A stretch of DNA of 64,000 nt from Candidatus Omnitrophota bacterium (lineage in GTDB: Bacteria; Omnitrophota; Gorgyraeia; Gygaellales; Profunditerraquicolaceae), in the NCBI GenBank assembly GCA_026387335.1, contig JAPLLX010000006.1, positions 125,702-189,701 of the forward strand, written 5' to 3'. Numbering within the stretch: the first letter of the stretch is position 1; each line of letters begins with the position of its first letter. Shown one piece after another: positions 15,015-60,597 of the stretch. The position numbers were made by a program, and so were the translations under genes. Below the pieces are notes generated by a model that saw only the letters and a program-made list of their open reading frames with translations, made no database searches and had not been told where the DNA came from.

Positions 15015-15087
15015 AGCTGGAGACGAGAATTGAACTCGTGACCCCGTCCTTACCAAGGACGTGCTCTGCCAACTGAGCTACTCCAGC
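15015..15087 (-). tRNA. tRNA-Thr (anticodon GGT)
   Basis: Minus-strand GCTGGAGTAGCTCAGTTGGCAGAGCACGTCCTTGGTAAGGACGGGGTCACGAGTTCAATTCTCGTCTCCAGCT; anticodon loop TTGGTAA; T-loop GAGTTCAATTCTC. Confidence 0.85.
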
Positions 15088-15232
15088 ATTTTTTTTGTTG
15101 GATACCTTGCCGGAGAAATTATCCTAAATATAAAAAAAAACCCACCAGAAGAATTCAAAAAAAAGAATTCTCTTTGTTCCCTTTTATCCTGTAATTAAAG
15201 TATTATGAATCCTGAATTTACGTGAGCAATAG

Positions 15233-49704: not shown

Positions 49705-51306
49705 ATGGCTATATTCGGCTTTAGTGAAGACAATCCCGGTTTACTCGACAGAATGACCGGTTATCTTAAGGGACAAAAACCGGGCAAGGCTTATAAATTT
49801 TGCGCTAAAAATATTTGCCTGGCCTATGCGGATAAACTTCATAACGGCGATCCCAGAAATAACTTTGCTGTTTGCGATGGCAAAAAAACAATTGCGCTTA
49901 TTCTGGAGGGCCATATTTATAATACCCGGGATTTTGCGGCTGAATCAATCATTTGGCTATATAAAGAATACGGCTTAGATTTCATTAAGCGCCTGGAAGG
50001 AGAATTTACGTTTGTGCTCTATGATAGCCTGGCAGGTAAATTGATTTTTTACCGGGATGAATTTGGAACAAAACCTCTGTATTACTCTTATAAGAACGGA
50101 AAAATAATTTTTGCTTCAGAAATAAAAGCGATCTTCCGCCACCCCCTCAAACGAGAATTTAACCTTGAGGCGCTCGTTGAGCAATCAATATTAGGATTTA
50201 CTTATAACGATAAAACTATATTTTCCGGAATTTATTCCCTGCCGGCCGGCATTCCTACTCTATTCGACCTAAAGACACAAGCTTTTTCCTACCCCTCCTA
50301 TCGCCCTAAAAAAGGCTCTCGGAAAAATAATTTAACCGAGCTAGAAATTATCCAAAGGACAGAGAAACTAATCGTTGAATCTAGCCAGCGTAAGATTGCT
50401 TCGGAAAAAGAGATCGGCTTATATTTATCGGGAGGAGTAGATTCAACTTTAATCGCGGATATAATCCGGAACAATAAAATACGCGTAAACGCGTATTCCC
50501 TAAAGGGCCAAAAAAACCGCGCAGACTTATTTTATGCCGCAAAAAACGCTCAAAAATACGGTTTTCAGCATCAGATAATCGCAATAAAGGAAACCGAGGC
50601 TTTGCGTTTTTTACCCGCGGCTTGTTACCACGTTGAAAATATCTGGTTTCAGATGGCTAAAGTATACCTTTTTCTTCATAAAATAAAGGGTAATCAGCGG
50701 GTGAATTTATGGGGTATCGGCACTGAAGAATTCTTTAAAGGATTGGCTTCGCATATAAATCAGGAGGGATTCAGGAACTATTTAACCAATAGAATAACCA
50801 AAAAATACCCCCAGGCAAAGATAGTTCTTCCCTGGGCCCAAGAAATGCTTAGGCATCCGGCAAAGATAATGTTTGATGAAATTGCGCTGCGCACTCTTCT
50901 CTACCAAATAAGACTAATTTACCAGGTTTCGGCAAGTGTTAATCAAGAAGCGCGTTTTCCATACCTCTCTCAGAAAATAAGGAATTTCCTGGAACAAATA
51001 CCCCAAAAATTACATACTCAGAATGCTAACCCAAAATATATCATCCGGCAGATCGCCAAGACGCGAGGATTAAAATATAACAACAGGTTTAAATTAGGAT
51101 TTGATACCTCTTTGGATATGGAAGTTACTGCCAAATCCCTAAGGGAATTGTTTCCAAAAATAAAACCTAAACTAAAAAATCTAAAATTGTTTTCCGGTTT
51201 AAAATTTAACGCGGAGGAGATAATCTGTTTGGATATCTTAGACCGGGTAATGCTCAAAGAGACAAATCATTATAGCCAAGATTTACAAACAATATACCGG
51301 ATTTAA
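49705..51306 (+). CDS. Asparagine synthetase B-like amidotransferase lacking the N-terminal Cys nucleophile
   Basis: 533 aa; Ntn-glutaminase-like N-domain but MAIFGF instead of MCG(I/F); PP-loop SGGVDSTLIA in the synthetase domain. It is the only plus-strand gene in the accessory block, and a candidate promoter TTGAAA-N16-TTTAAT lies at 49633-49660. Confidence 0.8.
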   Translation: MAIFGFSEDNPGLLDRMTGYLKGQKPGKAYKFCAKNICLAYADKLHNGDPRNNFAVCDGKKTIALILEGHIYNTRDFAAESIIWLYKEYGLDFIKRLEGEFTFVLYDSLAGKLIFYRDEFGTKPLYYSYKNGKIIFASEIKAIFRHPLKREFNLEALVEQSILGFTYNDKTIFSGIYSLPAGIPTLFDLKTQAFSYPSYRPKKGSRKNNLTELEIIQRTEKLIVESSQRKIASEKEIGLYLSGGVDSTLIADIIRNNKIRVNAYSLKGQKNRADLFYAAKNAQKYGFQHQIIAIKETEALRFLPAACYHVENIWFQMAKVYLFLHKIKGNQRVNLWGIGTEEFFKGLASHINQEGFRNYLTNRITKKYPQAKIVLPWAQEMLRHPAKIMFDEIALRTLLYQIRLIYQVSASVNQEARFPYLSQKIRNFLEQIPQKLHTQNANPKYIIRQIAKTRGLKYNNRFKLGFDTSLDMEVTAKSLRELFPKIKPKLKNLKLFSGLKFNAEEIICLDILDRVMLKETNHYSQDLQTIYRI

Positions 51307-52443
51307 TCAGGCATCAAAACCCAGACCCGTGATATCAATAACCTTGCGCAGGTCTTTGTATTTTTTAAGTCGCAGCAATTTATTAAACAAATCTAGGCTG
51401 TTTTTTAATTCTACCCCGCAGGCCTTTTTAGTAGCTGAATAAGGGTAAACATCTACCCTGGAAAAACTAAACCTTTTTAAGAAATCTAAAGTCTGGACCA
51501 AATCATCTTTAGTCTCACCCGGGAATCCGACAATAATATCGGTAGTCAAACGTAGATTACGCACCTTGCGGCATAATTTATTAAACAACATCCGCAAGTA
51601 GGCGGAATCATATTTTCTACGCATCATCTTTAAAATACGATCGGAAGCCGACTGGATAGGAACACTTATTTCTTTATTGATCTTATCATTTAAGATGAGC
51701 TCCATAAGCTTATCCGATAAATCGTTGGGATAAAATTCCAAATAAAATACCTCCAGATTAGTCTGGGCTAAAATAAATTCTAATAACTGAGTGAAGGTAA
51801 AATGTTTGTTCCGCGGGTCATGCCAACCGCCCATGCAGGGCCCGCCAAATTCAATCCTCTTTATCCCTCTTAACCCCAACTGCCTAATCTGCTTTTTAAC
51901 CTCACTAAAACTGACATTCCTATTTTTCCGCAGGCAGGGGCAAATACAATAACGGCAATAATTATTGCACCCATTTTCTATTAATATTATCCCGGAATTA
52001 AGAGTGTTACGGTAAACCGGTTTATTAGATGAGGCTAGTGTTTTTCTTAAATATCCGGCAATGCCTTCTTCCCTTATAAATAATATATTCCGGAGACCTT
52101 TTATCTTGGTCTCTGGCAATGACGAGGATGGATAACTCAAGGAACAACCGCTTAATATTATCAAAGCTTCTTTATTGACCCTCCTAATGTAAAACAAAAA
52201 ATTCTTTACAAATTTTTCTAAGTAAGCGGTTATCGGGCAGGCATAAATAATAAAAACCTTTGCTTTGAAAGCCAGGCGTCTTTCTTGCGAATCGCGGAAG
52301 AAATCCCGGTCATCTCCAAAATATTGGTTATAGATAGAAAAGGAATTCTCTAAGGCAAAAGTTAACTGTTGCGCTTGGAACCGGTTAGCCGCGCAACCGT
52401 AAGATTTAATAAAAATGTCCGGATTTTTATTATTTTTAGGCAT
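51307..52443 (-). CDS. MiaB-like methylthiotransferase-family radical SAM protein (no TRAM domain evident)
   Basis: N-terminal MTTase block IKSYGCAANRFQAQ; rSAM motif GCNNYCRYC; 378 aa. Confidence 0.75.
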   Translation of the reverse strand: MPKNNKNPDIFIKSYGCAANRFQAQQLTFALENSFSIYNQYFGDDRDFFRDSQERRLAFKAKVFIIYACPITAYLEKFVKNFLFYIRRVNKEALIILSGCSLSYPSSSLPETKIKGLRNILFIREEGIAGYLRKTLASSNKPVYRNTLNSGIILIENGCNNYCRYCICPCLRKNRNVSFSEVKKQIRQLGLRGIKRIEFGGPCMGGWHDPRNKHFTFTQLLEFILAQTNLEVFYLEFYPNDLSDKLMELILNDKINKEISVPIQSASDRILKMMRRKYDSAYLRMLFNKLCRKVRNLRLTTDIIVGFPGETKDDLVQTLDFLKRFSFSRVDVYPYSATKKACGVELKNSLDLFNKLLRLKKYKDLRKVIDITGLGFDA

Positions 52444-52445
52444 CT

Positions 52446-53828
52446 CTAAAAATACAGATATTTCATATCGGCCCGCTTAATCCTGCCGGCTAGAGGAGAA
52501 AGTACTGCCCTGCATTTAGCAATAATTTTTTGATCATAAAAATATTTAGAAAAAATGGCGTACTCGCCCATATTAGCCGATTTAGAGCATAAAAATCCCG
52601 GTGTATCTTTAATTTTTTTTCTTGTTTTTAAATAGGCTATTTCTTTAGCGAAAACCTTATCCGGGTCTTTTTTAAAAATATCCCTGAATCTCTCTTTGCT
52701 GACCCTGCCGTAACGCAGCCAACTGGTTATAAAATATATCATTTCATCTCTTTGGGTTAGGCGGCAGGTTGATTGAATCGGGAGCTTCCCTTGGTTTAAA
52801 GAATAACAGTATTTATCCGGGTCGTTAAGATTAACGTATCTTGAATAACCGGTGGCATGAGAGACCGCCCCGGCTCCTAGACCTAAAAATGGGCTGTTGT
52901 GTTCTATCGCATCGGAGAGTTGGACATTCCGAGCTGCCGGGTTTAGGCCGTTAGCGTCAAATTCTATCGCCGCGTATCCGGCTTGCCTAATAACTGCCTG
53001 GCTGATTTTGGCCAAACGCTCTCTTAGATCCATCTCTTCTTTAGAAAGCTGGCCTCCGGCTTGCATAAATGCGGTTAAGGCTGTCGGATAAAAGGGATGG
53101 ATATGGATCAATTCGGGCCGCAGCCGAATTACCTCCTCAAGGGTTTTCAAAACACTCTTAGCGGTTTGCCCGCTTAATCCTACCATTAAATCAACATTAA
53201 TGTTGGCTATTCCGGCGTTGCGGGCATCCTGAAAACAGCGCTCAAATGATTCTTTTGACTGATAGCGATTAGCGGACTCTAGGACCCGGCTATCTAAACT
53301 TTGGATACCTATAGTCAGCCTATTCACGCCGTATTTCTTTAATAATTTGAGCTTAGTCCAAGATAAAAAATCAGGATTCCCCTCAAAGGATATTTGTCGG
53401 CATTGATTAAGGTTAAAACTCATATACAGAGCATCAAATAACTCTTTTAATTGGCCTAAGCTTAATAAAGCTGGCGTGCCGCCGCCAAGATAAACTGAAG
53501 ATAGGGGAAATTTTGCGAATAATGGTTTATAGATTTTTATTTCTTTCTTTAAGGCGGCGAGGTAATCTTTTAATGCGGCCCTTTGCGCTAACTCTTGAGA
53601 AAAATAACGGCAGAATGAACATTTTTGCTTGCAAAAGGGTATGTGCACATATAACCCCAGGTGCCTAAAATTATTGGCCAAGGATTTTGACCATGACCTT
53701 AAGATTTCCCGGTTTGAACGGGCTTTCCCCCACAAAAACATCGGGGGATATTGAATAGTGTAACCGCTAAAATCCGTATTAGCGATTCCCTCGGTGATAC
53801 GCTTGAACAAAAAATCGTTATTTTCCAT
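52446..53828 (-). CDS. HemN-like radical SAM protein (HemN/HemW; class C rSAM methyltransferase-type architecture)
   Basis: YVHIPFCKQKCSFCRYF and the HemN-family fold length (460 aa). Confidence 0.8.
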   Translation of the reverse strand: MENNDFLFKRITEGIANTDFSGYTIQYPPMFLWGKARSNREILRSWSKSLANNFRHLGLYVHIPFCKQKCSFCRYFSQELAQRAALKDYLAALKKEIKIYKPLFAKFPLSSVYLGGGTPALLSLGQLKELFDALYMSFNLNQCRQISFEGNPDFLSWTKLKLLKKYGVNRLTIGIQSLDSRVLESANRYQSKESFERCFQDARNAGIANINVDLMVGLSGQTAKSVLKTLEEVIRLRPELIHIHPFYPTALTAFMQAGGQLSKEEMDLRERLAKISQAVIRQAGYAAIEFDANGLNPAARNVQLSDAIEHNSPFLGLGAGAVSHATGYSRYVNLNDPDKYCYSLNQGKLPIQSTCRLTQRDEMIYFITSWLRYGRVSKERFRDIFKKDPDKVFAKEIAYLKTRKKIKDTPGFLCSKSANMGEYAIFSKYFYDQKIIAKCRAVLSPLAGRIKRADMKYLYF

Positions 53829-53833
53829 AACAT

Positions 53834-54978
53834 TTAATTAAGCAATTGCCGGGTCCCGTAAATTTTAGTAAACAAGCGGTTCCGGTGAAGTTTTCTTTCT
53901 ATTTCGAGAAAGGTATGGATATAAATCTGAGACAAGCGGCAGAATTGGGGAAAGTAGCGCTTAAAATCTAAGCCCCAAGAAGAAAAATAAATATAATGCC
54001 CAACCGGGCAGAAGCAGTATCTTAAATATTTACATCTATTGCAATCCTTACCGGTTAATTCCCTTATTTCTTTTCTCTTTTGGGCTAAGAGCTTAAGCCG
54101 TAAACGGTTATTTATCCCTTTATGGATATCCCCGATAATAAATTTTTTTCTTTCCGGCTGGGCTATAGAAAATACTTTATCGCAGCAATAAAAATTCCCC
54201 TCCCAACCTAAGTGGATTTTCTGGCAACGAATGGGTTTATAAAGCCCTTTTCCTCTTATAAATGTACCCAATAAAGAATTTTCAAAAATATCTTTACTAT
54301 CTTTGGCTTTCTCAAAGATAGAGATATAGAAATCGCTAAACTCCCGGAATGCTGATTCGGCTTTATCTAAGCCAGCTTTTGACCATTGGGTGTAAAGGTT
54401 AGGGAAGAAATTAATGCGGTTAAACCCCAGATTCCGGAGATATTTTATATTTTTGAGCAGGCCGCTGATTGTCTGAGGCGTAAAGACTAAAGCGGAATAT
54501 ATTTTATGTCTGGTGTTATCCAGATCCAGTCGCTTTAAGTTCCCGGCTAGGCGATCATGACTAGAGCCATATGCTTTGCGCTTGAAAGGACGGTTGGAGT
54601 CTTGAACCTTTTTCTGGCCGTCTATACTGACTGTGGTTATAATCCTGTTTTCTTTTAAAAAACTTGACCGGCTGGGAGTCAGAAGAGTACCGTTAGTAAC
54701 AACCGTAACCGCTAATTTTGAACTTCCCTTATTCTGCTGAATATAATGATACAGCTTTTTTAACTTTCCAAACCTTAAACAAGGTTCCCCGCCGACAAAA
54801 TTTATACTCTTAGTGTTTCCGGGAGATGTTAAAAAAAAACTACGGCCTTCTTTAACTGCTCAACATCCAGTTCTTTATCTTTACAACTGTCCTTTTTAAC
54901 GAAACAATAATGGCAATCTAAATTACAGTGCTTGGTCAAAAAGATGTTCAACGCCTCGGGATGACTTTCTAACACCAT
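53834..54978 (-). pseudogene. Radical SAM/SPASM maturase (HxsC-like position) interrupted by a single-base frameshift in a T9 homopolymer (54831-54839)
   Basis: From the ATG at 54976-54978: MVLESHPEALNIFLTKHCNLDCHYCFVKK...VVFF then stop. Reading on in the +2 frame through the T-run gives FFLTSPGNTKSINFVGGEP... and runs continuously into the annotated C-terminal fragment (53834..54271, CCDK...CNRCKYLRYCFCP). One extra T (T10) would restore an intact protein of about 380 aa. Confidence 0.7.
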
Positions 54979-55307
54979 CCCCCTCCTCGCCCATGGTTAC
55001 CGTGGTTAGAGTGGTTAGAGTGGTTAGAGTGGTTACTATGGTTGGTGTGCGAACTGGAATGTGGCGTAGAGGAAGTATGGCCGCCTCCCCCCCCAGAGAC
55101 GAGCGAGTTACTATGGCTGGAATGACTGGCATGCTGGGCCTGAGCGCCTTTAGGTTCTAGCATCATTCCCAATACGGCTAAAGATATGCCTAATTTAGCA
55201 ATATTCTTCTTAGAGGCGTTCCCTTCTTCATTAAAAAGAAAGTCTTTAATATTTCTTTTAGTAACGGGCAATTTTTTATTCACCTTCTTATGGAGCTTTT
55301 TTTTCAT
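54969..55307 (-). CDS. His/Ser-rich triplet-repeat secreted peptide (His-Xaa-Ser-repeat precursor-like)
   Basis: Likely start is MKKKLHKK (ATG 55305-55307), 6 nt after AAGGAGG; the ORF-track GTG start at 55376 overlaps the upstream gene. Hydrophobic segment IAKLGISLAVLGMMLEPKGAQA, then HASHSSHSNS...GGGGG...HSSSHTNHSNHSNHSNHSNHGNHGRGGGWC. Its stop overlaps the start of the downstream rSAM gene. Confidence 0.55.
   Translation of the reverse strand: MKKKLHKKVNKKLPVTKRNIKDFLFNEEGNASKKNIAKLGISLAVLGMMLEPKGAQAQHASHSSHSNSLVSGGGGGHTSSTPHSSSHTNHSNHSNHSNHSNHGNHGRGGGWC
54993..55047 (-). repeat. Tandem 9-bp coding repeats (GTGGTTAGA x3 perfect, plus degenerate flanking units) encoding the HSN triplet repeat
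   Basis: gtggttaga gtggttaga gtggttaga gtggttact atggttggt. Confidence 0.85.
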
Positions 55308-56073
55308 TACGCGCCTCCTTATTAAGGGTAGCACAATATTTCTGGATAAATTCTTCAAATCCCTCATACTTTTCACAAGTAGTTTCGTCCCCGCTGATAT
55401 AACCCTGGCACATTAATCTTATATTAGGATCTTTTATTCCGTTGCATTTAGCAAGATTCTTTTCCTTAATCGCTTTTATATAAATGACTTTATCTACACA
55501 AAAATCATTCTTGCACAGTTTAACGTTTCCGGTGGTAAAAGCCCTGCATTCATTGCGTTCTGCTTCATTTTGCGCCTTTTCACAGACAGAACTATCATTG
55601 TTCAGCACTCCTTGCATAAATAGTTTAAACCCTTCACTATTCCGGTCCTTCCAGGAATTCATCAATTGCAGGCTGTTAAAGCCGGACTTAAAAAATCTGC
55701 CGTATATACCCTGATACTCGGTAAAATTAACCCGGCAGTCTTCCAGAAGAGAAGGTTGTAAACTAAGTTTGCCGCATTCCTCTATATCATCCTTTACCAC
55801 TGAACGGCAGTAGATACAACCAGTTAGAAGCTCCACTATCGGGGCCACTCGGGGATCATTAAAGTCTACCTTGTTAATATAAAAATCCTTAGAGCAATCT
55901 GCTGGCTTTTTTTCTTGAGGATAAGTCTCCACTTCTTGGGGATAATCCTCGATTAACTCGGCTTCGCTAAAAAGGAAAGAAAAATGGCTACTCAACATAA
56001 GAGAAACCAGAGACAGGAAGATGACCTTTAGGGCTAGTTTAAATTTGTCCATTATCAGCTCCTCATCACCCAT
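55288..56073 (-). CDS. Cys-rich secreted/membrane-anchored protein (16 Cys in the mature part)
   Basis: 261 aa; N-terminal hydrophobic helix LALKVIFLSLVSLMLSS; cysteines in spaced pairs (CIYC, CEKAQNEAERNEC, CKNDFC). Lies between the rSAM gene and the His/Ser peptide. Confidence 0.5.
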   Translation of the reverse strand: MGDEELIMDKFKLALKVIFLSLVSLMLSSHFSFLFSEAELIEDYPQEVETYPQEKKPADCSKDFYINKVDFNDPRVAPIVELLTGCIYCRSVVKDDIEECGKLSLQPSLLEDCRVNFTEYQGIYGRFFKSGFNSLQLMNSWKDRNSEGFKLFMQGVLNNDSSVCEKAQNEAERNECRAFTTGNVKLCKNDFCVDKVIYIKAIKEKNLAKCNGIKDPNIRLMCQGYISGDETTCEKYEGFEEFIQKYCATLNKEARNEKKAP

Positions 56074-57497
56074 TTATAAAATATATCCTTTATCTTCTCA
56101 TCTTTGAGCTTAATAAATAAATAATCCAAAATACCCTTATTGATCTGGCACCAAAATGCGGACTTATTAAAAATGTTCCCATTTATGGTATAATTCTGCA
56201 AAGGACATACCCCGCAATAGGGTTTATATACGCACTGGCTGCATTCGGGAAGATTATCCAGGCATGACGCTATGCACATCGTTTTTACCACGTTACTCTT
56301 AAAAAAATCCCTGTGCGAACCGGTCCTTACATTACCCAGCCTAAAAGATTCGTCTTTCTGCCGGCTCATCATCCTTCCTTCGTCACAGGCATAAACATCG
56401 CCATTAAAATTATAAGCCATTTGCCCTGTCCCTGCCCCGCAGGGAGAACGCAAATCAACATAACCCGGATCTTTATCCGTCAAAATTTTAGTTAAAAATA
56501 TCACGGCGAACCTTTCCCGAAAATCTTTGCCTTTCATATTCAAATCTATTATATGATCCAAAGCCTTTTTATAAAAAGTAAGGAAATCCTGCCCGGAGAA
56601 AGCTAACCTCTTCCATACCTTCTTATTAGTCCCAAACGGGCTTAGCGGCCTTAAATGCATCCCTTCCAGCCCTAATTTTACATATTCATTGACAATTTCT
56701 TTCGGAAAAGGAAGGGCCAGGCGGGTAATCGTAGCCAGAGCGAACGGCTTATGGCAGGAATTTGCTTTTTTATACTCCCTTATTAATCTTTTCAGCCATT
56801 TAACCGTATTTTTATGACTATTTTTATTCCCCAGAGTAACCCTGCATTTGTTATGCACCTTTTCGGGCCCATCCAATGAAGTGCATATATGGATATCGTT
56901 CTTTAAAAGGTACTTAACTATTTTCTCATTCATAAAGGTCAAATTGGATACAACGGTAAAACGCAAGTCCTTCTTGGCTTTTTTGTTCTTCTCTTGAGCA
57001 TACCGAACAATAAATTTTATAATTTCAAAATTGACTAAGGGTTCGCCTCCCTGAAATTCAATAGTAATTCCTTTATTGGCAGATTCAAAAATCCTATCGA
57101 CAACTTTTTCAGCCGTAGCTATATCCATATCTAATTCATTTTCCTTAAGATCCCGGGAACTTGCCTGACAATAAATACACTTATGGTCGCATCTTAAAGT
57201 AACTACCACAATATGTAAAGCGGTGCCTGCACTCCTTAAAAACATATTTTTTTGCACGTATCTTTGGGCCAGGTTATCAAAGTTTAACTGACCCCGGATA
57301 AAACCTTTATTCCGCAACTGGGAATACTCTTGGGGCGAAGCTTGTTCTATTTTACCGCTAAGGAAGGCGTTAAAACTTGGGGGCTGCAAAAAAATATAAT
57401 CCCCTATGACATTAGTCAGCAAATATTGCCCGTTTAACCGCTTAAATTGAAAGAAACCGACCTTCTGTCTATCTATCTTTTCAGACTCTAGCAACAT
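56055..57497 (-). CDS. Radical SAM/SPASM peptide-maturase-type enzyme with an about 100-aa N-terminal extension (HxsB-like position)
   Basis: LRCDHKCIYCQAS; FQGGEPL; C-terminal SPASM CGAG...YACDEG ... CSQCVYKPYCGVCP. Confidence 0.85.
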   Translation of the reverse strand: MLLESEKIDRQKVGFFQFKRLNGQYLLTNVIGDYIFLQPPSFNAFLSGKIEQASPQEYSQLRNKGFIRGQLNFDNLAQRYVQKNMFLRSAGTALHIVVVTLRCDHKCIYCQASSRDLKENELDMDIATAEKVVDRIFESANKGITIEFQGGEPLVNFEIIKFIVRYAQEKNKKAKKDLRFTVVSNLTFMNEKIVKYLLKNDIHICTSLDGPEKVHNKCRVTLGNKNSHKNTVKWLKRLIREYKKANSCHKPFALATITRLALPFPKEIVNEYVKLGLEGMHLRPLSPFGTNKKVWKRLAFSGQDFLTFYKKALDHIIDLNMKGKDFRERFAVIFLTKILTDKDPGYVDLRSPCGAGTGQMAYNFNGDVYACDEGRMMSRQKDESFRLGNVRTGSHRDFFKSNVVKTMCIASCLDNLPECSQCVYKPYCGVCPLQNYTINGNIFNKSAFWCQINKGILDYLFIKLKDEKIKDIFYKWVMRS

Positions 57498-57700
57498 TTC
57501 TTGGTCGCTCCTAAGACGTAATTGTTAAATTCATCTACAAATATATCCTTGACCTGCGTATCTATATTCTCTATTTTTACTTCTAGGTAATCTTTACAAT
57601 CCTTGACCCTGAATTTTGCCAGATGAGCATAAGCAAGGATCGCTTTCTGGATCGCCTTTTTTTTATAAAACCGAGTATTAAATCTTACGTTTTCTGGCAT
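57488..57700 (-). CDS. Small hypothetical protein (70 aa, ends ...KKCC)
   Basis: ORF overlapping both neighbours within the operon; no family recognised. Confidence 0.3.
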   Translation of the reverse strand: MPENVRFNTRFYKKKAIQKAILAYAHLAKFRVKDCKDYLEVKIENIDTQVKDIFVDEFNNYVLGATKKCC

Positions 57701-58082
57701 TTTTCTGTTTTCTATGTTTCTTTTTCCAAGGCAAAGCTATACCTAAAGGATCATCCTGATAATCCAGTTTTTCGGAAAGACTGACTACACCCGGACCCGG
57801 TAAAGTAGTATATAAAGCGCGGCCAACGATATATTCCCTGATCTTTTTGTTATTCTTACTTATCTCGTATCTTAAGGCGCAGCGCAATAGCTCATTCTTG
57901 AATTCACCTTTTAACGCTTCCAGTTTTTTACCCGCAACCTTGCCTTTACTTTTAAAAAAAACCTTAATCTGATTTCCCTTAAGATCGCTATCCAAAAAAA
58001 TGTAGACGCGGTCAATAAATAAATAACAAGCATTCAAAATAGCTTCTAAAGGATAGATTCTTGCGCTTAGCTTAATCTCCAC
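57678..58082 (-). CDS. Small hypothetical protein with basic C-terminal tail (possible HxsD-like accessory protein; unverified)
   Basis: 134 aa, GTG start; located between the secreted paralogs and the rSAM/SPASM gene. Confidence 0.35.
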   Translation of the reverse strand: MEIKLSARIYPLEAILNACYLFIDRVYIFLDSDLKGNQIKVFFKSKGKVAGKKLEALKGEFKNELLRCALRYEISKNNKKIREYIVGRALYTTLPGPGVVSLSEKLDYQDDPLGIALPWKKKHRKQKNARKRKI

Positions 58083-58115: not shown

Positions 58116-58457
58116 TTAAGGTGACACAAAATAATCTACCGTACTCACCCATTTACTTTTATTTTTAACCCATACGTCACTAGCCGCGATCTCACCGTTA
58201 ACATCCAGTTCCGTCTGAACGCCCCCGTAGCTAGCTGCGCTGGTCGCTCCAATATTCACCTGCCCCTGGACAATAAGGCCGTTACTGGGCAGAGTGGTTG
58301 CTCTATACCCGGAGCCGATGGACATCTGGTCCGAGCGCAATTCTATATAACTACCGTAGGGCGAGGGATAGTAGGTAGCGATGGGGATGTTTTCTCCGGC
58401 AAAAACAGTTATATATCCTAAAAAAGATACCGCGATAATTAATAATAACTTCTTCAT
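58116..58457 (-). CDS. Secreted Gly/Ser-rich protein, paralog 1 (113 aa)
   Basis: Signal peptide MKKLLLIIAVSFLGYITVFAG; mature part ENIPIATYYPSPYGSY...VNGEIAASDVWVKNKSKW shared with paralog 2. Confidence 0.6.
   Translation of the reverse strand: MKKLLLIIAVSFLGYITVFAGENIPIATYYPSPYGSYIELRSDQMSIGSGYRATTLPSNGLIVQGQVNIGATSAASYGGVQTELDVNGEIAASDVWVKNKSKWVSTVDYFVSP
58149..58337 (-). repeat. 189-bp near-identical direct repeat, copy A (copy B at 58633..58821; about 98% identity)
   Basis: Copy A (58149..58337) aligns with copy B (58633..58821) with only 3-4 mismatches, which indicates a recent tandem duplication or gene conversion between the paralogous genes. Confidence 0.8.
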
Positions 58458-58470
58458 TGGAGGCCTTTAA

Positions 58471-58950
58471 TTAACCGCAGCATAAAAAAGATCCGGACGT
58501 AGGTATATCATAAGTAGTGGGGCTAGTGCCATATATTGGCTGAAACCAACTATACGTAGTCCCTGAACCGCAGAGGGTATTTCCAGTATTAGGTCCATAT
58601 GTCTTCATTGTACACCAGCTCAGACTCCCCAGCCATTTACTTTTATTTTTAACCCATACGTCACTAGCCGCGATCTCACCGTTAACATCCAGTTCCGTCT
58701 GAACGCCCCCGTAGCTAGCTGCGCTGGTCGCTCCAATACTCACCTGCCCCTCGATAATAAGGCCGTTACTGGGCAGAGTGGTTGCTCTATACCCGGAGCC
58801 GATGGACATCTGGTCCGAGCGTAGATTCGCGTAAACTCCGTAAGGCGAAGGATAATAAGTGGTAATGGTCAGATCTTCTGAAAAAGCAAAAGGGAAGGAA
58901 ATTATAATTAAACCTATAGAAATTACTAACGTGGTAAAAAATTTATTCAT
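58471..58950 (-). CDS. Secreted Gly/Ser-rich protein, paralog 2, with Cys-containing C-terminal tail
   Basis: Likely start MNKFF (ATG 58948-58950) preceded by AAGAGGTG. Shares the core with paralog 1, plus the tail CTMKTYGPNTGNTLCGSGTTYSWFQPIYGTSPTTYDIPTSGSFLCCG. Confidence 0.6.
   Translation of the reverse strand: MNKFFTTLVISIGLIIISFPFAFSEDLTITTYYPSPYGVYANLRSDQMSIGSGYRATTLPSNGLIIEGQVSIGATSAASYGGVQTELDVNGEIAASDVWVKNKSKWLGSLSWCTMKTYGPNTGNTLCGSGTTYSWFQPIYGTSPTTYDIPTSGSFLCCG
58633..58821 (-). repeat. 189-bp direct repeat, copy B
   Basis: See copy A (58149..58337). Confidence 0.8.
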
Positions 58951-59028
58951 TGCACCTCTTAGCATAATTCCTACTTGACCCTGCCCGCTCTTAAGAATAA
59001 ATTATCATAACTCCTGCAATGAGTCAAG

Positions 59029-60597
59029 TTAAAACAGGTGCGCCTTGACCCTGGCAATATCTTCTCCCTGCTTAAGCTCATTTATGAAATTTTCCATATT
59101 CTTCTCCCAGGCCCTATCCGTAAAAAAATAACGCGCGAGGTACTTATTCATTCGCCGCGGATCTTTAAACTTCCTGTTCATTAAAAATACGAACTGGACA
59201 GGCCTGAAATAATCAATCTTATTGCGGTCCAGGCACTCTAAGAAACGGGAATACCGGTATTCCATCAATTTCCTAGCCATATCCCACTTCCAACCCCGGA
59301 ATTCATCATAGGCAAACTCAAAACCCGGATTTGATTGCTCCCTAACATTAATAATCCTGTATTTTGCGCAAGATCTAAACATCAGACTTTCCGGTTTAAG
59401 CACAAACCTGTTTAAATTAACTCCTTTAATATACGCATTATTATCTCTTATGAATTCCAGCGTGGAAATGATATCCTGGCTCGTCTCAAAAGGCAAACCG
59501 ATCAACAGGTCTATCTCTACCCAGATGCCCAGGTCATGGCATAGTTTTAAAATATGGGAAGCGTGTTTAAGGTCAATGACTTTACCTATGTATTTCTGCA
59601 GTTTAATACCGGCGGATTCCAATCCGATCACCAGCCTTACTGCCCCCGCTTCTTTTAAACGCAAAAGTATTTCTTTATCCAGGTTATTAAAGGTGGCGCA
59701 GTCGGTAAACTTTATCTTTAGGCGCTCTTTTGCTATCTTATCGGTAAGATCCCGGACAGTCTGCTTGGTTGGATTGATATTCGAATTCAGAAAAAAGAAG
59801 TCCTGCGTCTTATGTTCCCGTTTAAGAAATTTTAGTTCGCGGATTATCCTATCGTAATCCTTTATCTTAAATCCGGGTTTTCCGGATAATTCACAAAATA
59901 TACAGCTATTCTGGCAGCCTTCGATAAACGTATACGGGAGCAATAAAGGAAGTGATTTTGAAACGCCGGTATATCTGGATAAATTGCTTATCCGCCCTGA
60001 ATGCGGGAGAAACTCCGAGATTATAGTATTCCTGCTGTATTTATATAGGCTAAGCGGAAACCCCTTAAAATTCGGCTCTAAGAAAATCCGGGGAAGTTTC
60101 GGGTTAAGCTTGTTTTTGACGTTTAAAAAATCAATAAAGCTGTCTATACTGGAAGTCTGGTAATCTATAAGGCCTGCCTCTCGGTAAGCCGGCAGCTCGA
60201 AATTAGCGACGATTATCACGCCATAGCTATCTTTTATCTTCTTCATCAGGCAGGCGGCGATAGCCTGGCTGTTGATTCTATCCAACGACGGGTAATGCCC
60301 GGAAAAACAGACATAATCATACCCCGAAAAATCTGTTAAGGCCATTACTTTTGCGGTTTCCGCATCAATCTCAGCGCAAGCAGACCCGCGTAGGTAATCA
60401 TTGACTCTGGCTTGGTCCAGAAAAACATCCGTTTTTATGCTCCCCTTTACCAAAGACCTGTAAAGTTTGACATAAAGATCGTCGATATCATGCTCTATAT
60501 TATTCTGGCTTAAAGCCGAACTTACTAGCGCCAGGCCCAAAGGAGGCATGAAGGCATGATAGAAATAGTAAGGGGTAAGAACTAATTTCACTTTCAT
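59029..60597 (-). CDS. Cobalamin-binding-domain radical SAM protein (class B-type architecture)
   Basis: N-terminal B12-binding-like region (VLTPYY...PPLGLALVSSAL) and rSAM motif EGCQNSCIFCEL; 522 aa. Starts 21 nt downstream of etfA. Confidence 0.8.
   Translation of the reverse strand: MKVKLVLTPYYFYHAFMPPLGLALVSSALSQNNIEHDIDDLYVKLYRSLVKGSIKTDVFLDQARVNDYLRGSACAEIDAETAKVMALTDFSGYDYVCFSGHYPSLDRINSQAIAACLMKKIKDSYGVIIVANFELPAYREAGLIDYQTSSIDSFIDFLNVKNKLNPKLPRIFLEPNFKGFPLSLYKYSRNTIISEFLPHSGRISNLSRYTGVSKSLPLLLPYTFIEGCQNSCIFCELSGKPGFKIKDYDRIIRELKFLKREHKTQDFFFLNSNINPTKQTVRDLTDKIAKERLKIKFTDCATFNNLDKEILLRLKEAGAVRLVIGLESAGIKLQKYIGKVIDLKHASHILKLCHDLGIWVEIDLLIGLPFETSQDIISTLEFIRDNNAYIKGVNLNRFVLKPESLMFRSCAKYRIINVREQSNPGFEFAYDEFRGWKWDMARKLMEYRYSRFLECLDRNKIDYFRPVQFVFLMNRKFKDPRRMNKYLARYFFTDRAWEKNMENFINELKQGEDIARVKAHLF

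Follow-up and report, generated by a model that had tools for sequence, protein, structure and literature searches.

Can a gene whose reading frame breaks off after 49 codons still supply its cell with an enzyme? The question is raised by a putative peptide maturase gene of the radical S-adenosylmethionine (SAM)/SPASM type on the minus strand of a 64-kb stretch of a Candidatus Omnitrophota genome (assembly GCA_026387335.1, contig JAPLLX010000006.1), here called the window. The gene follows a His-Xaa-Ser repeat precursor gene in an array resembling the Hxs peptide-maturation systems, and its two parts, which lie in different reading frames, meet in a run of nine T's (T9). An earlier note, made from the sequence alone, had offered as explanations a homopolymer sequencing or assembly error, a genuine pseudogene, or slipped-strand phase variation. 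Comparison with relatives disfavours each of these and points to recoding at the RNA level, which was absent from that list: the gene is probably functional, with slippage, of RNA polymerase or of the ribosome, yielding its full-length enzyme.

A nine-T run at the junction of two reading frames

On the minus strand the junction reads ...AAG GCC GTA GTT TTT TTT TAA CAT CTC CCG G..., where the nine T's occupy positions 54839-54831 (A9 on the plus strand). The 0-frame open reading frame (ORF) begins with an ATG at 54978, encodes 49 amino acids (aa; MVLESHPEALNIFLTKHCNLDCHYCFVKKDSCKDKELDVEQLKKAVVFF) with a radical-SAM cluster motif in the form C-NLD-C-HY-C, and ends VFF-TAA at 54831-54829. The first codon of the -1 frame is TTA (54832-54830); this frame reads LTSPGNTKSINFVGGEP... 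and stays open for 332 codons up to a TAA at 53836-53834, with no ATG, GTG or TTG before 54271 (196 codons). Adding one T to the run gives a 381-aa product, as against 49 aa by standard decoding, and the peptide spanning the junction of the full-length product is ...AVVFFLTSPGNTK. The earlier note had been accurate on the T9 tract, on the first frame ending VFF-TAA and on the shifted frame reaching 53834, and its estimate of one intact ORF of about 380 aa for a T10 tract agrees with the 381 aa of the repaired product.

The T9 run by itself is not beyond chance, since the window, at 42% GC, contains two A/T runs of nine or more. What goes beyond chance is its position and its persistence. The run lies precisely where the two frames meet, within a conserved protein family whose alignment is gapless through ...KKAVVFF/LTSPGN... 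(the slash marks the junction), it is the sole A/T run of nine or more that touches coding sequence in the window, and it has been kept in diverged relatives. Within the window's ORFs of at least 200 aa, A/T runs of 6, 7 and 8 numbered 103, 28 and 10, respectively, and runs of nine or more numbered 0. In what is a small sample, this absence suggests selection against slippage-prone 9-mers in coding sequence. The window's other long run, A9 at 15132-15140, is intergenic and lies directly downstream of a tRNA-Thr gene (15015-15087, minus strand).

The merged protein aligned without a gap at the junction to about 70 uninterrupted homologues (370-390 aa) from Omnitrophota and Candidate Phyla Radiation (CPR) bacteria, with a best identity of 63%; the junction KKAVVFF/LTSPGN corresponds to KKAIDxFLxxPG in the homologue consensus. 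It has the hallmarks of a radical SAM/SPASM maturase, namely the cluster cysteines C18, C22 and C25, GGEP at residues 63-66 and a C-terminus with multiple cysteines, and C252, C266, C313, C316, C322, C324 and C347 were invariant in the homologue alignment. In Pfam the merged protein matched Radical_SAM (59.2 bits) and Fer4_12 (36.5 bits). It had no match to the SPASM model; nevertheless, its fold matches those of CteB and anSME. NCBIfam models of radical SAM/SPASM peptide maturases matched residues 9-322, the best being PapB at 131.6 bits (cutoff 340) and HxsB at 113.3 bits, and no NCBIfam equivalog cutoff was reached. Assignment of the split gene as HxsC (TIGR03977) was considered and rejected, as HxsC was not among the 25 best NCBIfam matches of the merged protein.

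An AlphaFold model built on the homologue alignment was confident, with a predicted local distance difference test score (pLDDT) of 87.1 and a predicted TM score (pTM) of 0.87. The frame junction in this model falls midway along helix 1 (residues 39-51, pLDDT about 95), which follows the cluster loop and precedes the GGE strand. The closest Protein Data Bank (PDB) folds found by Foldseek were CteB (5wgg, TM 0.75) and anSME (4k36, TM 0.64), and phmmer matched CteB 5wgg at 3e-18. Like CteB, PapB and anSME, the merged protein combines CxxxCxxC and GGE motifs with a partial TIM barrel and a Cys-rich C-terminal auxiliary-cluster domain. However, its identity to these enzymes is only about 21-23%, and it starts at the barrel, without the N-terminal domain of the CteB type, a partner of SPASM that carries a recognition element (RRE) for ribosomally synthesized and post-translationally modified peptides (RiPPs). 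The homologue alignment and the fold match bear out the GGEP motif and the radical SAM/SPASM identity that the earlier note had read in the shifted frame.

Conservation of the run and of the shifted frame

T9 was present in eight assemblies (the NCBI metagenome-assembled genome, three from Logan, three from JGI and one ENA MEGAHIT assembly), which derive from at least six samples and four pipelines. The window sequence, T9 included, recurs without a difference in an independent Logan assembly of SRR20698650. The run also occurs in a strain that is 97.8% identical in nucleotides and 96% in amino acids, recovered from two JGI metagenomes (L015 and L016), the ENA MEGAHIT assembly (L052) and a Logan assembly (L053). 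Two further relatives carry T9 at the homologous place: L001 (Logan SRR12676968, 74% aa identity), with GCC GCG GTT TTT TTT TAG, and L023 (JGI Ga0172381, 72% aa identity), with GCG AGT TTT TTT TTA ATA. The four sequence types (the window, the L015 type, L001 and L023) all need the same -1 shift or the addition of one U. The L023 run lies one nucleotide off (AG-T9-AAT as compared with G-T9-AAC/AGC) and is still exactly T9, with the total length unchanged, indicating that the length of the run was preserved through a change in its flanks. The position of the 0-frame stop varies, being immediate in the window and L001 and nine codons later in L023. With the amino acids and the local codon usage taken as given, the run would be kept by chance with a probability of about 0.10 and 0.06 per lineage.

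All other recovered orthologues (about 45 loci, at most 64% identity) have both parts in one frame. The homologous codon string of several of these intact genes contains an in-frame T run: T7 in the sister sequence L003, T8 in L007, L012 and L024, and T9 in L020. In a neighbour-joining tree the four split sequences formed one clade with 100% bootstrap support, to which the intact P0001/L003 were sister. A single origin of the split is the parsimonious reading of this tree, and the ancestral sequence was plausibly GTT TTT TTT TTA (V-F-F-L, T10). The in-frame T9 of L020 (Ga0265297_10091294, positions about 331-342; 54% identity) reads GAT TTT TTT TTA (D F F L); if T9 were slippery in that organism too, part of the L020 transcripts would be out of frame.

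No full-length relative more than 63% identical to the repaired protein was found among about 15 billion predicted proteins, and hence no assembled T10 allele. A search with the 49-aa stub returned only the stub itself (the word index gave one candidate), HxsB as the query gave no close relatives beyond the known ones (98%, 82% and 75%), and a scan of GTDB representative genome contigs, the window's own genome not being among them, gave only intact, more distant orthologues.

Selection on the part downstream of the run was estimated by the Nei-Gojobori method, with a binomial test against neutrality. The ratio of non-synonymous to synonymous differences per site (pN/pS) was 0.15 for the window and L015, 0.26 for the window and L001, 0.24 for the window and L023, and 0.30 for L001 and L023, compared with 0.28-0.31 for pairs of intact genes. 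Neutrality was rejected for the window and L015 with p = 4e-7 (20.5 synonymous vs 11.5 non-synonymous differences) and for the other pairs with p from 1e-13 to 1e-22; synonymous divergence (dS) was 0.10 for the former pair and 0.9-1.2 for the other pairs between lineages. Neither a stop codon nor a second indel was found downstream of the run in the four lineages (332, 332, 324 and at least 225 codons). In the split gene the shifted frame is under purifying selection as strong as in intact orthologues, and a stop-free frame under such selection is not that of a gene inactivated in the common ancestor.

Slippage and its alternatives

The likeliest route to a full-length enzyme would be for RNA polymerase to realign on the T9/A9 template and add one non-templated U, giving a U10 mRNA in a fraction of the transcripts, while standard decoding would yield a 49-aa dead-end peptide. 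The identical protein would result if the ribosome slipped back by one base on U_UUU_UUU (on U_UUU_UUA in the L023 lineage), and such a -1 shift may contribute. From sequence comparison we infer that slippage occurs, and the same applies to its efficiency, to the relative weight of transcription and translation, and to whether the arrangement is adaptive or merely tolerated. We favour transcriptional slippage as the main route because nine T's are a known slippage site of RNA polymerase, because no conserved stimulatory element accompanies the run, and because a heptamer would need fewer T's. However, T9 offers a slippery heptamer in every register, so that the sequence cannot separate transcriptional slippage from -1 programmed ribosomal frameshifting (PRF).

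Runs of this length have precedents. In Shigella mxiE the insertion of one non-templated U in a T9 run fuses two ORFs, and Thermus dnaX uses A9 slippage (PMC1088944). RNA polymerase of E. coli restores -1-frame reporters through insertion; the yield is 5-10% on T7/T8 and grows with run length, with a bias to poly(T) (PMC6260861). Baranov et al. (2005) took a run length conserved among all homologues as a sign of transcriptional, not replicational, slippage (PMC1088944). The Omnitrophota site resembles the 9A/9T sites of that study (orfA-orfB fusions of insertion sequence (IS) elements, the Thermus dnaX A9 and the so-called pseudo-pseudogenes) in its run length of nine and in the conservation of both run and shifted-frame extension. 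The run of at least nine lies in the sense coding strand, one added U fuses the two ORFs into a longer product, the length of the run is invariant among the split homologues, and the extension in the shifted frame is conserved. In Thermus dnaX, by contrast, the slip makes a shorter product, and the pseudo-pseudogenes are single-strain mutations, whereas the present split is a fixed feature of a clade with dS of about 1.

The closest parallel is S. flexneri mxiE, in which overlapping ORFs are likewise joined by one inserted U and the longer, functional product needs the slip (PMC1088944), and which also lies in cellular DNA (chromosomal or plasmid-borne) and belongs to neither an IS element nor a virus (PMC5009743). 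The two differ in that mxiE encodes an AraC-type regulator rather than a radical SAM peptide maturase and belongs to another phylum, and in that slippage at mxiE has been shown experimentally, whereas here it is read from conservation. There is also a likeness to poly(A) rescue in Buchnera and Blochmannia and to the rescued-indel scenario, in that the frameshift here lies at a pre-existing T-rich codon string.

Might the slip also set the level of the enzyme? The end of the precursor gene, stop codon included, and the beginning of the maturase gene share 10 nt (54969-54978), and this overlap is kept, together with the GGWC end of the precursor, in intact and split orthologues alike. The overlap would imply translational coupling, with ribosomes that finish the precursor likely to reinitiate on the maturase. 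Because the start of the maturase overlaps the stop of what would be an abundant His-Xaa-Ser precursor, a requirement for a slip would cap the maturase at a small fixed fraction of precursor synthesis. The maturases of the E. coli HXS system are extremely scarce (PMC13128918), and a slip-capped enzyme level, by analogy, fits these very low amounts. That T9 is a selected, programmed device, setting a fixed low maturase:precursor ratio or one responsive to nucleotide pools or transcription speed, is a possibility to which we give appreciable but less than even weight.

Several points weigh against slippage-dependent expression or limit its reach. Slippage is deduced from conservation alone, the RNA polymerase of Omnitrophota is uncharacterised, and the site is known in four lineages only, of which one, L023, breaks off at residue 274. 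The searches for a conserved stimulatory RNA structure and for a Shine-Dalgarno-like element were negative, which weakens the case for efficient -1 PRF and is neutral on transcriptional slippage. Consensus assemblies may be compatible with a minority T10 subpopulation, and the cell may simply tolerate a 'rescued' indel that struck a natural T-rich hot spot, rather than use the run as a regulatory device. A further reading, T9 as the end of an intrinsic terminator or attenuator separating precursor and maturase, was rejected, there being no terminator-like site at or near 54831-54860.

Within recoding as a whole, -1 PRF acting alone on a faithful U9 mRNA takes only a minor share of the probability. 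It would give the same product as a U10 mRNA, and a 0-frame X_XXY_YYZ heptamer is present in every lineage (U_UUU_UUU in the window and L001, U_UUU_UUU or U_UUU_UUA in L023), as it is at the -1 sites of E. coli dnaX (A_AAA_AAG) and HIV-1 (U_UUU_UUA), which likewise produce a -1 fusion. Unlike those sites, the run exceeds what a heptamer needs, nine T's being kept in all lineages where seven positions would suffice, and it has neither a conserved downstream structure nor a Shine-Dalgarno-like stimulator: single-sequence folds gave shuffle z-scores of +0.86, +0.43 and -1.08, the four-sequence alifold consensus reached only -9.1 kcal/mol and placed no hairpin after the site, and an upstream GAAGG is lost in L023. 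Heterogeneous transcripts would moreover be expected regardless, as nine-T runs are known slippage sites of RNA polymerase. A different kind of slip, at replication, is assumed in phase variation, where slipped-strand mispairing would toggle the tract between T9 (OFF) and T10 (ON) and so switch the second maturase and the Hxs-like system in subpopulations. Defence genes are often phase-variable. The homopolymer, at codons 47-49 and so near the 5' end of the gene as in a typical contingency locus, the function of canonical HXS in anti-phage defence (PMC13128918), and the possibility that intermittent ON states also maintain purifying selection would all suit such a switch. Like the phase-variable contingency genes (e.g. 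those with poly-G in Campylobacter), the locus is putatively defence- or surface-related; unlike them, it has one tract length and lacks an ON allele throughout the assemblies. A hypermutable tract would be expected to vary from lineage to lineage, yet T9 was invariant in the eight assemblies and across four lineages with dS up to about 1.2, and no intact protein above the 63% bound, as an ON state would provide, was present in the 15-billion-protein collection. The displaced run of L023 argues for selection on T9 itself, and the criterion of Baranov et al., conserved run length, favours transcriptional slippage (PMC1088944). The toggling of the second maturase that the earlier note had singled out is accordingly improbable, as the length polymorphism and ON alleles it predicts are absent from assemblies and protein collection alike.

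Loss of the gene by a T10-to-T9 deletion, once in the ancestor or repeatedly, is very improbable. The site is a natural mutational hot spot, the conserved (I/F)-F-L motif being encoded by in-frame T7-T9 runs in intact orthologues, and NCBI annotates just the 49-aa stub. A decayed gene, however, would not be expected to retain long open frames with pN/pS values like those of intact genes and without a second disabling lesion; the window and L015, which diverged after the frameshift, are still under selection, and four independent recent deletions within a monophyletic clade would be unparsimonious. The rule set down beforehand, that orthologues likewise split would mark a fixed pseudogene, therefore fails here, as the compared orthologues are split and their downstream frame is nonetheless stop-free and under purifying selection. 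It is scarcely credible that the 49-aa N-terminal peptide and a separately initiated C-terminal protein assemble non-covalently into a split enzyme, even though both pieces are conserved. The first ATG, GTG or TTG in the C-terminal frame occurs at codon 196 in the window, 252 in L015 and 52 in L001, and the variable position of the 0-frame stop means that termination-reinitiation is not conserved either. The junction would also cut the modelled helix 1 between the cluster loop and the GGE strand; given this and the missing start codon, the halves could not work as separate proteins. Homopolymers are error-prone on some sequencing platforms. An assembly or sequencing error with T10 as the true sequence is nevertheless practically negligible, as the eight concordant assemblies come from different runs, relatives at 72-74% identity have the same T9, and in-frame T8/T9 runs at the homologous site were called correctly in orthologues from the same kinds of data.

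If T9 is indeed a selected, programmed recoding signal, it would be the first to be described for a RiPP or radical SAM maturase gene; a full-text literature search found none reported in RiPP or Hxs radical SAM maturase genes. Few conserved recoding sites are known in ordinary chromosomal genes of bacteria, the textbook cases being dnaX, prfB, copA and mxiE/spa (in part PMC5009743). The maturase gene would then join them, in the very small group of bacterial chromosomal genes whose dependence on slippage is conserved. Slippage-dependent genes as such are already known, and what would be new is the gene class and the uncultured phylum Omnitrophota, neither of which yielded a report in the search; the device would act there in an Hxs-like peptide-maturation system or, by analogy, possibly an anti-phage system. 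As a recoding site that has stayed fixed while dS reached about 1, it would provide a clean comparative case, and also a simple way into how enzyme-to-substrate stoichiometry is set in Hxs-type systems. There are practical consequences too. The annotation at present consists of a 49-aa hypothetical protein followed by unannotated DNA, so that genome mining would miss the second maturase of the cluster, and the unaltered sequence, expressed in another host, would yield little enzyme as long as the run was not repaired to T10 or recoded.

The Hxs-like gene array

The features of the locus are collected in the table. Gene order is D-D'-B-X-A-rSAM, where rSAM stands for the radical SAM maturase gene.

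Table. Features of the split maturase gene and its surroundings (positions in the window)
Feature	Positions	Strand	Remarks
T9 (U9 in mRNA) slippery run, candidate recoding site	54831..54839	-	identical T9 in L002, L015, L016, L052, L053, L001, L023
0-frame ORF, 49 codons + TAA	54829..54978	-	radical-SAM cluster motif CxxxCxxC; NCBI hypothetical protein MCX5696225.1
-1-frame continuation, 332 codons + TAA	53834..54832	-	GGEP SAM-binding motif, remaining barrel, Cys-rich SPASM-type C-terminal domain
Complete recoded coding sequence, 381-aa radical SAM/SPASM maturase (putative)	53834..54978	-	one extra U or -1 shift inside run
HxsD	57678..58082	-	TIGR03976 66.9 bits (cutoff 50)
HxsD-like small protein	57488..57700	-	NF038315 (HxsD_rel) 69.3 bits (cutoff 41)
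HxsB radical SAM/SPASM maturase	56055..57497	-	TIGR03978 505.9 bits (cutoff 370)
Cys-rich 261-aa ORF between hxsB and precursor	55288..56073	-	called also in L002, L052, L053
HxsA3-like His-Xaa-Ser repeat precursor ending ...GGGWC	54969..55376	-	NF038309 43.7 bits, below 65-bit cutoff; H-x-S/N repeats visible
9-bp tandem repeat, 4.7 copies	54994..55035	.	encodes HSN HSN HSN units of precursor, in frame
HemN-like radical SAM gene	52446..53828	-	starts 6 nt past maturase stop; same operon-like array
MiaB/RimO-like radical SAM gene	51307..52443	-	next in array

The canonical HxsDBCA system provides anti-phage defence in E. coli (Li et al. 2026, PMC13128918), and canonical HXS systems have the order D-B-C-A in 99.6% of cases and occur to 99.7% in Pseudomonadota (PMC13128918). 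Judged from its genes, the Omnitrophota array resembles the HXS systems of E. coli and Klebsiella in having HxsD and HxsB equivalogs, a candidate His-Xaa-Ser repeat protein with an N-terminal hydrophobic segment, and more than one radical SAM maturase. It differs from them in gene order, in a second maturase that is no HxsC equivalog, in a short precursor of the HxsA3 type that ends GGWC, and in its hosts, which are Omnitrophota or CPR bacteria. Two HxsD-type genes stand in tandem with an overlap of 23 nt, where canonical HXS systems have one. The Cys-rich ORF between hxsB and the precursor gene had no Pfam or NCBIfam match; it has an N-terminal hydrophobic segment, and in the 97.8% identical strain it is called as 254 aa.

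A peptidoglycan-binding domain was not detected in the precursor. Its GGWC end and a leader of the form KDFL(F/L)xEEG...KNIAK(L/I)GISLA(V/I)LG are conserved across lineages. The 9-bp tandem repeats to which the earlier note had pointed as an accompaniment of phase variation are real, but they encode in-frame His-Xaa-Ser units that cannot toggle a reading frame, and as a second phase-variation element they were rejected. The number of HSN/HxS units at the C-terminus varies by lineage (compared in L023, L003, L017 and L018), with four HSN here, a run that L023 lacks. A second long homopolymer at 55087-55094 (C8 on the plus strand, G8 in the precursor ORF on the minus strand) is likewise in frame and encodes ...SGGGGGH.... 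The 97.8% strain has an identical precursor protein, but L023 has not kept the G8 stretch (SPGGQGGH).

Three more radical SAM genes flank the Hxs-like core (49705-53828 and 59029-60597), of HemN-like, MiaB/RimO-like and B12-binding types, and the cluster may install several modifications. An asparagine-synthase-like amidotransferase is encoded on the opposite strand near the core. The downstream set of L001 is different and consists of a PP-loop Diphthami_syn_2 protein and two radical SAM genes. Two tandem paralogues (58116-58457 and 58471-58965) encode small signal-peptide proteins that are 70% identical over 113 aa (E = 8e-54) and share the common core YYPSPYG...LRSDQMSIGSGYRATTLPSNGLI...DVNGEIAASDVWVKNKSKW.

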